The position numbers were made by a program, and so were the translations under genes. This document shows, in pieces, positions 26,890-29,963 of a DNA stretch of 64,000 nt. How positions within the stretch are numbered: the first letter of the stretch is position 1; each line of letters opens with the position of its first letter. The DNA is from a virus (lineage: Duplodnaviria > Heunggongvirae > Uroviricota > Caudoviricetes): the IMG/VR virus record IMGVR_UViG_2565956721_000002. The stretch is one strand, 5' to 3'. Under the pieces are notes generated by a model. That model saw only the letters and a program-made list of their open reading frames with translations. It ran no database searches and was not told the origin of the DNA.

Positions 26890-27264
26890 ATGATGACACT
26901 AAAACATTTTCTTGACCGCCCATTATGGGCGGCAGCCGCAGGCTATGACTTTAATTATATGGATTGCATGTCTTATACCGCCAATGCATACGACTATTCC
27001 TTCAGTCTGCTGCTTAATTCTTTAAGAATATTGCCGCAAACAGAAGTTGGAGAGCTTCATTTATGGCTATTGGGCTTTATCGCGGCTGGAGTTGGTATTG
27101 CTGTATGGCCTTTTATTTTCTGGCTGGTGGCTGTTGTAGTGTGGTTTAAGTGCAAGACGTACCGGAGAAAGTATTTCTTAGGTGATGGAATGACTGATAT
27201 TGCCAAAATGAACATTGAAAAATGGACTAAGGAATGTGAAAAGAAATGGCGCAAAAAGAAATGA
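26890..27264 (+). CDS. membrane protein
   Basis: 124 aa; hydrophobic LWLLGFIAAGVGIAVWPFIFWLVAVVVWF then basic tail. Confidence 0.4.
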   Translation: MMTLKHFLDRPLWAAAAGYDFNYMDCMSYTANAYDYSFSLLLNSLRILPQTEVGELHLWLLGFIAAGVGIAVWPFIFWLVAVVVWFKCKTYRRKYFLGDGMTDIAKMNIEKWTKECEKKWRKKK

Positions 27265-28178
27265 CCAGAATCACTGAAGAGCGTATATCAGAGATTATTT
27301 CCCGTATCGAAATGTATGGTCACGGTGCTGGATATACGGCAGATGAAGTATTGGCACTTGCCCAAATGGCTTTGGCGGCTTGCAAAGATGATAAAAAAAT
27401 GAAGTTTATCGACTTGTTAGTGAAGGAACTGCCTAAGTGCGGCGGGTGGCCTGATGGAATGAGTTATTGTTACCTACCCAGTGTCAATTTAATGGCACCA
27501 TGCGCGACTTTTGCTTTTGGCTCAGACCACAAAAAAGACACTTTCTTTGGGCGCAATTTTTGTTGTGAGATTGAGCTTCCAATTGGTGACCTTGATAGCG
27601 ATGAATACCAGTCAGTTGTCACTCGCGAACAATACGAATCAGCTCTCATAGCGTCGCAGAAAGTCGAGTTCAATGGTGATGAACTTGAAAGTAAGACTTA
27701 CAGGTTGGATTTTGGGCAATGGCTGGAACAGCAACGCGGGAAAATCGATGTGGACTGTGGTTGTGTGTCCACTGAAACATTCATGCACTGGCTGCGGGTA
27801 GCTTACGAGGCTGGCAACTATCCGGATATTCCGGATAGTTCGGTGCCAGCACCAGGAAAGGGCGTCACCGGTGAACGTATCCGAATTAAGCCGCATGTTT
27901 ATCGCGAACTGGTTAACCGTCTCCACGATACAGCGATCAAGTGTGCTGGCACCCAGCAATTACGAGAAAGAATTAGCCGTGTTTTGGGCGACGTTATTAC
28001 ACCAGATCATCATAAACAAGCCGAGAAAAGTGGCCTGGAAAGGTGTCACCTTGAGGCGGCATTAAACATTAAGCCGGGGCATACGCTTGGCATTATTGAT
28101 GCACTATTGGTTCATAAGATGGCCAGGGCTTTATTGCCGCTGGTGGATGCTGGCGATACAAGCGAGGGTGAAGTATGA
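27246..28178 (+). CDS. hypothetical protein
   Basis: 310 aa, no recognisable motif. Confidence 0.45.
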   Translation: MAQKEMTRITEERISEIISRIEMYGHGAGYTADEVLALAQMALAACKDDKKMKFIDLLVKELPKCGGWPDGMSYCYLPSVNLMAPCATFAFGSDHKKDTFFGRNFCCEIELPIGDLDSDEYQSVVTREQYESALIASQKVEFNGDELESKTYRLDFGQWLEQQRGKIDVDCGCVSTETFMHWLRVAYEAGNYPDIPDSSVPAPGKGVTGERIRIKPHVYRELVNRLHDTAIKCAGTQQLRERISRVLGDVITPDHHKQAEKSGLERCHLEAALNIKPGHTLGIIDALLVHKMARALLPLVDAGDTSEGEV

Positions 28179-28537
28179 GAGTTGCAGATCACATCAAACA
28201 CCTTGAAAGAATTATCGAAAACGGTGAACTCTTAAGAGATCAGATGAGACGCACGGCAGAAGTCAGAGAGGCGATAATCCGCAGTCAGGCTGGTAAATTA
28301 AAGCAATTATCAGAGATTAACGCGCTATACAAGAACAGACGTAACCGGGCGGCGCTGCGGCTTCAGAAAGCACGTAATGAAATTAAATTGGTGGAGGCAA
28401 AACTGAAAAAACAGATTCAGCGTTACGATCAGCAAGATGCTTTTTATGCCGCCATCAAGGCGGCTGCTAATGAAATAGGCATCTGGAAGTTGCTGGTGGA
28501 GAAAGCAAAGACGAAGTTAAATGCCAACGAAAGCTGA
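28175..28537 (+). CDS. coiled-coil protein
   Basis: 120 aa, charged heptad-like sequence throughout. Confidence 0.45.
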   Translation: MRVADHIKHLERIIENGELLRDQMRRTAEVREAIIRSQAGKLKQLSEINALYKNRRNRAALRLQKARNEIKLVEAKLKKQIQRYDQQDAFYAAIKAAANEIGIWKLLVEKAKTKLNANES

Positions 28538-28611
28538 ACTACAGGTACCCACCAGCACATACAGAAAATGATTGTTTCCACATCAAGGAGATTTTAATGT
28601 TTCACTGAACA

Positions 28612-28749
28612 TTAAGTAAGCCAGTGCATAATTCCATTTTTTACTGACCTTAAAAGCAAAATCAAAACGATGATGAGGATGATCGCCAGAATCTGGCTAA
28701 TAACAGGCGCATCTAAAAATGCACTCAGGAACTGAAAAAAAGCAGTCAT
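28612..28749 (-). CDS. small hydrophobic peptide (45 aa), antisense-oriented; type I toxin-like candidate
   Basis: ATG at 28749..28747 with AAGGAA about 9 nt upstream; MTAFFQFLSAFLDAPVISQILAIILIIVLILLLRSVKNGIMHWLT; lone minus-strand ORF in an AT-rich gap between plus-strand genes. Confidence 0.35.
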   Translation of the reverse strand: MTAFFQFLSAFLDAPVISQILAIILIIVLILLLRSVKNGIMHWLT

Positions 28750-29198
28750 TAAGGTGGTTCCTTGTCAAATGTAAAGGAGCACTTGCTCACGTTGACGTAG
28801 AAACCCAACCCCTATATAGTTGGATTCGGTGAAAGAAAGTCGTTAACGTGAGCTTACGGCACATGTTTTCGGAACAACATCAGGGAACGGCTAATTCCTT
28901 GATGCGGATGGGGTCTGTAATGCAGACCCTATCTATTAACGTCATGATTGCATCTCAAATTTTCTCCTTATCTTCATTAATCAAAATTCATTTCATTTGT
29001 GAAACATCACAATATTTAGAAAATGGCCCTCTTGCAAGTGCATAACTTTGTGGATAAATCAGGAAGAAAAAAGTTGATTCTGCGCACGGCAAGGCAGATA
29101 AGCTGTGCACAAAAATCAATGGGAAAAGAAAAAAAATTAAAAGTTACTTTGCTGGTTAAATAATAGTCGTTACGCAATTGTTCTGGATGGGATTTGAT

Positions 29199-29450
29199 AT
29201 GCACGATTGGAATATTGCAGCTAAAAGTCAGGAAGAACGGGATAAGGTTAACGTTGATCTGGCTGCCAGCGGTGTGGCGTACAAAGAGCGATTGAACATA
29301 CCTGTCATAGCTGAACAGGTAGCCCGCGAGCAACCAGAGAATCTGCGCACCTATTTCATGGAACGGTTACGGCACTATCGGCAGTTAAGCCTCCAGTTGC
29401 CAAAAGGGAGCGATCCGGTGTATCAGAACGAGGATGCACCAAAAAAATAA
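29199..29450 (+). CDS. hot: homolog of DNA polymerase III theta subunit (HolE)
   Basis: internal ATG 29199 of track ORF 29178..29450; [43 protein letters not shown] aligns with E. coli theta as recalled. Confidence 0.8.
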
Positions 29451-29537
29451 CGGCAAGATGGGGGAGAAATGTGATTAGCCCCCAGCGTGGCGCGCCTACA
29501 AACCCCGCTTTCACAAACTATGCCTTTTCAATGTATA

Positions 29538-29553
29538 CTGTATGAATAAACAG
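29538..29553 (+). promoter_or_regulatory. LexA (SOS) box
   Basis: CTGTATGAATAAACAG fits CTG-N10-CAG, about 20 bp upstream of humD. Confidence 0.7.
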
Positions 29554-29573
29554 TATTATTGAGGTAAAACGCT

Positions 29574-29963
29574 ATGGGCTTCCCTTCTCCTGCGGCGGAT
29601 TATGTTGAAAGCCGAATTTCTCTTGATCAGCAGATAATTAGACATCCTTCAGCGACCTACTTCATGCGGGCAGCTGATAGCCATCACCGTGAGGGAATAT
29701 TGCAGGGTGCTTTGCTGGTGGTTGATTCCTCGCTTACTCCGGTTGATGGTTCTCTGCTTGTGTGCGCTATGGAGGGTGAATATCGCATAAAGAGATACAG
29801 GAAGTATCCGCGCCAGCACCTGGAGGACTTAAGCACCGGGAAGAAAGAGGCGTTACCAGTAGATGACGATGGATACACGGGCAGTAATGCTGTTTTTGGT
29901 GTGATCACTCATGTCATCAATGATGCCCGAAGTGGGGAATTTGATGATTGTCCGGTTATTTAA
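29574..29963 (+). CDS. humD: UmuD-like SOS mutagenesis protein homolog
   Basis: 129 aa with GAGGT RBS; LexA/UmuD-type peptidase region; LexA box upstream; P1 synteny before phd-doc. Confidence 0.8.
   Translation: MGFPSPAADYVESRISLDQQIIRHPSATYFMRAADSHHREGILQGALLVVDSSLTPVDGSLLVCAMEGEYRIKRYRKYPRQHLEDLSTGKKEALPVDDDGYTGSNAVFGVITHVINDARSGEFDDCPVI

Follow-up and report, generated by a model that had tools for sequence, protein, structure and literature searches.

The window analyzed here is a 64,000-nt stretch of DNA that represents a phage P1-type plasmid and is 99% identical to P1. Its positions 28400 to 29300 are 99.0% identical to positions 85779 to 86680 of phage P1 (NC_005856) and 99.7 to 100% identical to the corresponding region of many P1-type plasmids. 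We investigated the interval between pmgV, which an earlier note on this DNA had listed as a coiled-coil gene, and hot; humD and phd/doc are also among the flanking genes. As claimed in that note, the gap is AT rich, with a GC content of 0.379 at 28540-29180 compared to 0.483 for the whole window. The interval falls within a region listed as variable among P1-type plasmids (PMC9603915). It is dispensable for P1 lytic growth according to CRISPRi knockdown of upfN and upfO and to a deletion survey (PMC10695390), which fits an accessory module. Farther to the right, the gap between hot and humD measures only 124 nt (29450-29574) where P1 carries the 573-nt LexA-regulated lxr, indicating that the window stems from a P1-type plasmid without lxr. 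The features of the interval are the following.

Up to 28537: pmgV (end of gene)
28594-28615, minus strand: 8-bp A/U-rich hairpin across the ORF45 stop codon, possibly a 3' stem of the mRNA
28612-28749, minus strand: ORF45, 45 aa, MTAFFQFLSAFLDAPVISQILAIILIIVLILLLRSVKNGIMHWLT; candidate toxin or small membrane protein
28719-28832, plus strand: upfM, annotated in the P1 reference
28756-28763, minus strand: ORF45 Shine-Dalgarno (SD) region, AAGGAACC (GAGGAUUA in the 77% lineage)
28785-28853, no strand: inverted repeat, extended to 13 bp (arms 28785-28797 and 28841-28853), enclosing the small RNA (sRNA) promoter
28786-28973, no strand: strongly constrained noncoding block with low divergence compared to its flanks
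28792-28820, plus strand: sigma-70 promoter TTGACG-17-TATAGT, near consensus (10/12); predicted start at ~28828
28828-28945, plus strand: candidate structured sRNA, predicted, ~115 nt, three hairpins
28840-28872, plus strand: sRNA hairpin HP1
28848-29045, plus strand: upfN, annotated in the P1 reference
28878-28904, plus strand: sRNA hairpin HP2
28906-28934, plus strand: sRNA hairpin HP3
28964-28969, minus strand: SD-like AAGGAG, strong and invariant, in the putative ORF45 leader
29009-29057, minus strand: nrdA-like promoter directed at ORF45; predicted start at ~29002
29014-29009, minus strand: its -10 hexamer TATTGT, 17 nt after the -35 hexamer
29023-29163, plus strand: upfO, annotated in the P1 reference
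29037-29032, minus strand: its -35 hexamer TTGCAA
29045-29037, minus strand: TTATGCACT, within the nrdA-like promoter
29057-29049, minus strand: DnaA box TTATCCACA of the nrdA-like promoter
29199-29450: hot, starting at 29199 (alternative TTG start at 29178)

Relatives of this interval fell into three lineages only, namely, a P1 type (99 to 100% identity), a P7 type (~92% over the interval), and a third type (~77%, the 77% lineage). Searches for more diverged relatives in viral contigs, metagenomes, plasmids, and E. coli genomes returned the same three lineages, as did a covariance-model search and an exhaustive phmmer search, and a scan of genome contigs gave only chance-level matches in unrelated taxa. 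ORF45 occurs exclusively on P1-type plasmids, from Escherichia, Salmonella, and Shigella. It is found in 229 PLSDB plasmids, nearly always at full length, and 216 of 5,426 complete E. coli genomes (~4%) carry the element. ORF45, the conserved block, and the nrdA-like promoter always co-occur. P7-type plasmids have kept all three and lack hot. Thus, these elements appear from their distribution to form a module that is independent of hot and is not simply a hot leader. In two P7-type relatives (L159 and L005), the hot-proximal sequence to the right of the window equivalent of ~29087 is replaced by SSU5-like sequence. Insertion sequences were also noted, namely, an IS903 directly downstream in P7 itself and an IS1 within the interval in plasmid NZ_AP026785.1.

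The P1 reference record annotates the interval differently. It places three plus-strand ORFs without assigned function there (upfM, upfN, and upfO), lists the predicted sigma-70 promoters P2upfM, P1upfM, and PupfN as well as the late promoter LPhot, and does not contain ORF45. In the 77% lineage, stops or frameshifts break all three of these frames, and upfN and upfO are interrupted in this way in P7 also. Since all three are broken in the diverged lineage, upfM, upfN, and upfO are probably spurious annotations, and the previous statement that the gap holds no plus-strand gene was effectively right. The predicted promoters P1upfM and P2upfM were rejected too, as indels disrupt both of them in the 77% lineage.

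The minus-strand frame had been described before with exact coordinates, a length of 45 aa, and one hydrophobic stretch, all of which we could confirm. The predicted peptide has a hydrophobic core of ~18 residues, with a single predicted transmembrane (TM) segment, and a basic C-terminal tail; its KD hydropathy, taken over 19 residues, peaks at 3.08 (at 2.59 in the diverged lineage). ORF45 thereby falls within the size and hydrophobicity range of a generic type I toxin peptide (<60 aa, membrane targeted). The ribosome-binding site that had been deemed plausible is an AAGGA located 9 nt upstream of the ATG. In RefSeq, the same peptide is the "hypothetical protein" WP_000123562.1, called by PGAP in plasmids; our literature search retrieved no publication naming either the peptide or this accession. 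ORF45 did not match any Pfam, NCBIfam, or PADLOC profile, and its best hit in PHROG was a family of unknown function at an E value of 0.056. An exhaustive phmmer search against 1.84 billion representatives recovered only variants of ORF45 itself, and comparison with curated toxin families (Hok/Gef, Ldr, TisB, ShoB, Ibs, Fst, and others) gave no significant profile match. A resemblance to Ldr and Fst through a "DxAP(I/V)" motif was considered and discarded, since ORF45 gave neither a BLASTP alignment to LdrD nor a profile match.

The ORF45 frame is open and free of indels in all three lineages. In the 77% lineage, it again comprises 45 codons without indels (MIVFFQFLSAFLNAPVLSQVLAIVFIVVLIWFFKSVINRGVRWLI), and indels occupy 0 of 138 alignment columns in ORF45 compared to 7 of 73 and 1 of 36 in its flanks. 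The AGGA core of the SD sequence is retained in that lineage, and the spacer between SD and ATG has diverged by five substitutions and one indel. Over ORF45, comparison with the 77% lineage gave a dS of 0.49 and a dN of 0.22 (dN/dS of 0.45). In simulations, a frame of this length remained open in ~40 to 44% of mutation sets, and the joint probability of an open frame with replacements at least as conservative as those observed was ~0.07. Constraint on the peptide is thus modest to weak, and ORF45 is, judging from these comparisons, probably but not certainly coding. A few ORF45 alleles have frameshifted or truncated C termini; in such alleles (L160, 2493-2642; proteins P0001 to P0004), single-base indels or insertions alter or truncate only the tail after the TM segment. 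In the hairpin over the stop codon, the one pair changed in the 77% lineage is a G.U on the minus strand and an A.C on the plus strand, a weak hint at a 3' stem of a minus-strand RNA.

The strongest signal in the interval is the noncoding block. Between 28786 and 28958, it differs from the 77% lineage by 15 substitutions in 174 nt (JC 0.092), and conservation extends to ~28973. The intergenic flanks have diverged by JC 0.25 to 0.51 in the same comparison, and the synonymous sites of hot, which serve as the neutral reference for this pair of lineages, by a dS of ~0.55. The block thus evolves at a rate ~6-fold below neutral and is far more constrained than ORF45. Several frames in this region were considered as coding and rejected: orf25 on the minus strand, in which all three substitutions are nonsynonymous; leader ORFs of 21 and 3 codons, which are conserved neither in length nor in sequence; and upfN, which is frameshifted. 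The invariant AAGGAG is followed on the minus strand by a 9-codon TTG frame (28940-28973) reading MRCNHDVNR, MRCNHDINR in the 77% lineage, and MRCIYEVNR in L096. Read on the plus strand, the same motif is a CUCCUU anti-SD-like sequence in the RNA tail.

At the left end of the block lies the near-consensus plus-strand promoter, which corresponds to PupfN of the P1 record, where it is predicted only. Both of its hexamers are invariant, and two spacer positions vary. The RNA predicted to start from it folds with a free energy of -44.6 kcal/mol and a z score of -4.9 to -5.3; the values for its minus-strand counterpart were -32.3 kcal/mol and -3.0, and the z-score peak is local to 28840-28959. The plus-strand model contains seven G.U pairs that would be C.A mismatches on the opposite strand, and 97.5% of the cells in an alignment of eight distinct variants pair in the model. 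HP3 shows one compensatory change (U-A to C-G) together with a G.U to A-U and an A-U to G.U change that are compatible with pairing on the plus strand only; in HP2, the loop varies and the stem is kept. Variable positions favor unpaired columns (12 of 52, compared to 7 of 70 paired columns; one-sided P = 0.044). The covariation is thin, coming from three lineages in which most pairs are invariant, and 18 of 500 shuffles reach the observed score. The strong purifying selection on a promoter and a structured plus-strand RNA and the likely misannotation of upfM, upfN, and upfO are the most solid new facts on the interval.

The earlier note had also pointed to a hairpin, GGGTCTG-TAATG-CAGACCC. This hairpin is real but lies at 28911-28929, ~7 nt to the left of the reported 28918-28936, and extends to a 13-bp stem (28906-28918 paired with 28922-28934). 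No canonical intrinsic terminator or U tract was found after HP3, which is followed by UAUCUAUUAA. Comparison of the RNA with Rfam 15 (Sok, Rdl, IstR, OhsC, OrzO, C4, and others) gave chance-level hits only (E values of at least 1.6, far below the gathering scores), and a covariance model built from these RNA sequences detected nothing outside the P1-type module. The HP2 loop ACGGCTAATTC (28887-28897) has an 11-nt perfect antisense match at 27970-27980 in pmgT (27246-28178); a match of this length is no more than chance would give in a 64-kb window, and the loop shows no conservation.

These patterns bear on the reading that the interval has no function beyond its known promoters, ORF45 being a chance ORF in AT-rich DNA and the similarity of the block a product of recent recombination between lineages. 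The survival of a 45-codon frame in about 40% of the simulated mutation sets agrees with this idea, as do the mosaic nature of P1-type plasmids, with their listed variable region, and the dispensability of the interval for lytic growth. However, the 15 substitutions in the block are patterned by structure (compensatory, wobble, and biased toward loops), indicating that the block was not recently exchanged. Moreover, ORF45 has accumulated no indels where its flanks have several, its SD sequence is preserved, and the element is intact in the ~229 plasmids and 216 complete genomes that carry it. We regard a lack of function as improbable.

A 12-bp inverted repeat had been reported as well, and we found it as described, with arms CTCACGTTGACG (28786-28797) and CGTTAACGTGAG (28841-28852) forming 11 Watson-Crick pairs out of 12 and one G.T. 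Both arms are invariant in all lineages, and the onset of conservation of the block coincides exactly with the left arm. By analytic estimate, ~0.04 to 0.15 such repeats are expected by chance in 640 nt; the shuffle control is weak, as 17% of shuffles contained at least one. The candidate sRNA at this place is the predicted three-hairpin RNA of the plus strand, and the repeat is not part of it: the sRNA start lies inside the repeat, and the left arm, which contains the -35 hexamer of the sRNA promoter, is upstream of that start. Thus, both arms could occur together only in a minus-strand mRNA or in plus-strand read-through. The repeat may fold into a hairpin within the leader of the minus-strand mRNA, ~22 nt ahead of the ORF45 SD sequence, or may serve as an operator pair.

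On the other side of the block, the nrdA-like promoter faces ORF45. The older record M95666 annotates a minus-strand "nrdA-like promoter" with a DnaA box at this place, and direct comparison with the region upstream of E. coli nrdA confirmed this annotation. The P1 minus strand (cttcctgatTTATCCACAaagTTATGCACTTGCAAgagggccatttt) is nearly identical to E. coli across the DnaA boxes and the -35 hexamer; identity to the E. coli nrdA region is 83.5% over 115 nt (29019-29133), and the P1 record gives a value of 94% for 56 nt. A -10-like hexamer (TATTGT or TACTGT) stands at a 17-nt spacing in all three lineages, in diverged surroundings. The promoter, whose activity is predicted, thus has the nrdA-type arrangement of DnaA boxes directly upstream of -35 and -10 hexamers, with 17-nt spacing and homology to E. 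coli, and matches the consensus at 8 of 12 positions. No NrdR box was detected within three mismatches in the promoter or in the TATATA region of the block. We found no terminator-like site between this promoter and ORF45, and neither prediction nor inspection made a better minus-strand promoter nearer to ORF45 evident.

The nrdA-like segment (29019-29155) is shared with SSU5-type phage-plasmids (L008, ~2387-2624; also L176 and L177), phage Cyrano being one example of this type. In these elements, a bidirectional intrinsic terminator (AAAAAGCCCAGCCTAGTCAACTGGGCTTTTT) and the direct repeat GTCGCCAGATACTTAYGGC follow the segment on its left, upstream of a humD-like gene, and the segment may drive a short RNA. 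Since the SSU5-type elements share the nrdA-like segment alone and continue with unrelated sequence, ORF45 and the block are specific to the P1 lineage.

Instead of being an RNA gene, the block might act as DNA, with the inverted repeat and the hairpins as protein-binding operators or as a single-strand initiation or priming signal tied to the neighboring DnaA boxes and to the replication and repair genes hot and humD. Consistent with such a role, the inverted repeat has its left arm exactly where conservation sets in, its arms bracket a promoter, and DnaA boxes are close by. In addition, most stem positions are invariant, so pairing in RNA is unproven. However, the strand asymmetry, with seven G.U pairs and wobble changes tolerated on the plus strand alone, fits RNA better than it fits duplex sites, and loops vary where stems are kept. 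Moreover, the block did not match a C1 or LexA operator pattern (both by inspection only) or an NrdR pattern, and its motif is not repeated elsewhere in the window. A DNA-level role of this kind is thus improbable, with a small chance of being correct.

The reading that we favor, although tentatively and at somewhat less than an even chance, is that the interval constitutes a cis-antisense module resembling type I toxin-antitoxin systems, made up of ORF45 and the plus-strand RNA. Transcription would start at ~29002 from the leftward promoter, whose DnaA boxes and -35 hexamer would have been captured from the host nrdA regulatory region. The resulting mRNA of ~400 nt would consist of a leader of ~250 nt followed by ORF45, translated into a single-pass membrane peptide. 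Inside this leader, the near-consensus and presumably constitutive plus-strand promoter would produce the ~115-nt three-hairpin RNA, from ~28828 to 28940 or beyond. Because the two genes overlap, the small RNA would be perfectly complementary to the ORF45 leader, provided that the ORF45 mRNA begins at the nrdA-like promoter (~29002). By analogy with hok/sok and ldr/rdl, pairing of the small RNA with the leader would lead to degradation of the mRNA or to a block of its translation, and the face-to-face promoters, with starts ~175 nt apart, could add transcriptional interference. Synthesis of ORF45, which we infer to be toxic, would be limited to conditions in which the antisense RNA drops, such as after the plasmid prophage is lost, or in which the DnaA-controlled promoter is under strong induction. 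The DnaA boxes suggest coupling to replication status.

This control model depends wholly on the overlap in cis with a long leader, since complementarity in trans between the sRNA and the ORF45 start region is at chance level (z = +0.5 and -1.6). Sequestration of the SD sequence in the long leader was considered as a conserved mechanism and rejected, being predicted to be weak and not conserved. The earlier suggestion of a type I toxin-antitoxin locus is therefore upheld in part. An intact small hydrophobic ORF with an SD sequence, a constrained opposite-strand promoter with a structured RNA, and a leftward promoter argue for it, whereas the weak constraint on the peptide, the lack of membership in a known toxin family, and the absence of trans-complementarity to the start region argue against it. 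Small lysis or exclusion loci had been proposed as well, and nothing specific supports either role.

The same absence of trans-complementarity would be expected if the features were independent, i.e., if the RNA were a stand-alone trans-acting sRNA or the structured leader of a transcript that lysogens express toward hot and ORF45 were a harmless small membrane protein or unexpressed. The much stronger constraint on the RNA block than on ORF45 is consistent with this alternative. Moreover, no terminator-like site was found between the plus-strand promoter and hot, and read-through to hot is possible in P1 itself; hot is reportedly expressed in lysogens, which would need an upstream sigma-70 promoter. 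Against a leader function, P7-type plasmids retain the block and ORF45 without a downstream hot, and conservation is poor in the stretch that separates the block from hot, which contains a 19-nt indel. Against a trans-acting RNA, no significant complementarity to other sites of the 64-kb window was found. The invariable co-occurrence of the block, the nrdA-like promoter, and ORF45 also argues against independence. Overall, we consider independent features to be somewhat unlikely.

A cis-antisense module at this place would be of interest in several respects, as P1 is a reference phage and a model phage-plasmid and its relatives spread resistance genes. If confirmed, it would replace three probably spurious genes (upfM, upfN, and upfO) with two real ones, extend the type I repertoire by one toxin family and one regulatory RNA family, both new, and provide a case in which a mobile element took over a DnaA-regulated promoter of its host for the control of a membrane peptide. 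A second stabilization module would also affect the reading of P1 maintenance experiments performed with phd/doc mutants. The full version of this proposal, in which P1 carries, previously unrecognized and 1 kb from phd/doc, a second addiction or stress module with a new type I toxin family, its new three-hairpin antisense RNA, and a toxin promoter derived from host nrdA and wired to DnaA and replication, is bolder and would tie the maintenance of the plasmid prophage, or abortive responses, to the replication cycle of the host; we hold it to be unlikely.

Compared to known systems, the proposed module would share several traits with hok/sok (and with pnd and srnB): a toxin mRNA of ~400 nt in which a long leader precedes the ORF of a small membrane peptide close to the 3' end, a short antisense RNA transcribed from a strong opposite-strand promoter inside the leader, and a location on a low-copy plasmid-type replicon, where it adjoins another addiction module, phd/doc. 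In contrast to Hok, ORF45 shows no Hok/Gef similarity (no Pfam or NCBIfam match), and it is not coupled to a mok-like overlapping frame. The candidate antisense RNA also differs, with ~115 nt and three hairpins located 80 to 190 nt upstream of the start codon.

With ldrD/rdlD of E. coli, the module would share a cis antisense RNA gene inside a long 5' leader and a single-TM peptide with a basic C-terminal tail. The Ldr motif "D-x-AP-(I/V)" bears a superficial resemblance to ORF45. However, BLASTP gave no alignment between ORF45 and LdrD at E values of up to 100, the peptide did not match the Ldr family, and the RNA did not match any Rfam family. In tisB/istR-1, zorO/orzO, shoB/ohsC, and dinQ/agrB, the promoter of the small RNA likewise sits directly upstream of the peptide ORF, with divergent orientation. 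Pairing would again take place ~80 to 200 nt upstream of the start codon, where the standby sites of those systems are found, and the toxin promoter would be tied to a regulator of replication or DNA stress, with DnaA boxes here and LexA there. Those systems differ in that they use ~20 nt of trans-type complementarity, whereas no significant complementarity was found here outside the overlap, and the peptides are unrelated.

With respect to the promoter, the closest likeness is to the E. coli nrdAB promoter region, with nearly identical DnaA boxes and -35 hexamer. The homology ends before the -10 hexamer, NrdR boxes are absent here, and ORF45 takes the place of ribonucleotide reductase as the downstream gene. 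Because every sequence-based test of membership in a known family failed, the module, if real, would represent a new family, one whose anatomy and would-be working resemble those of hok/sok and ldr/rdl.
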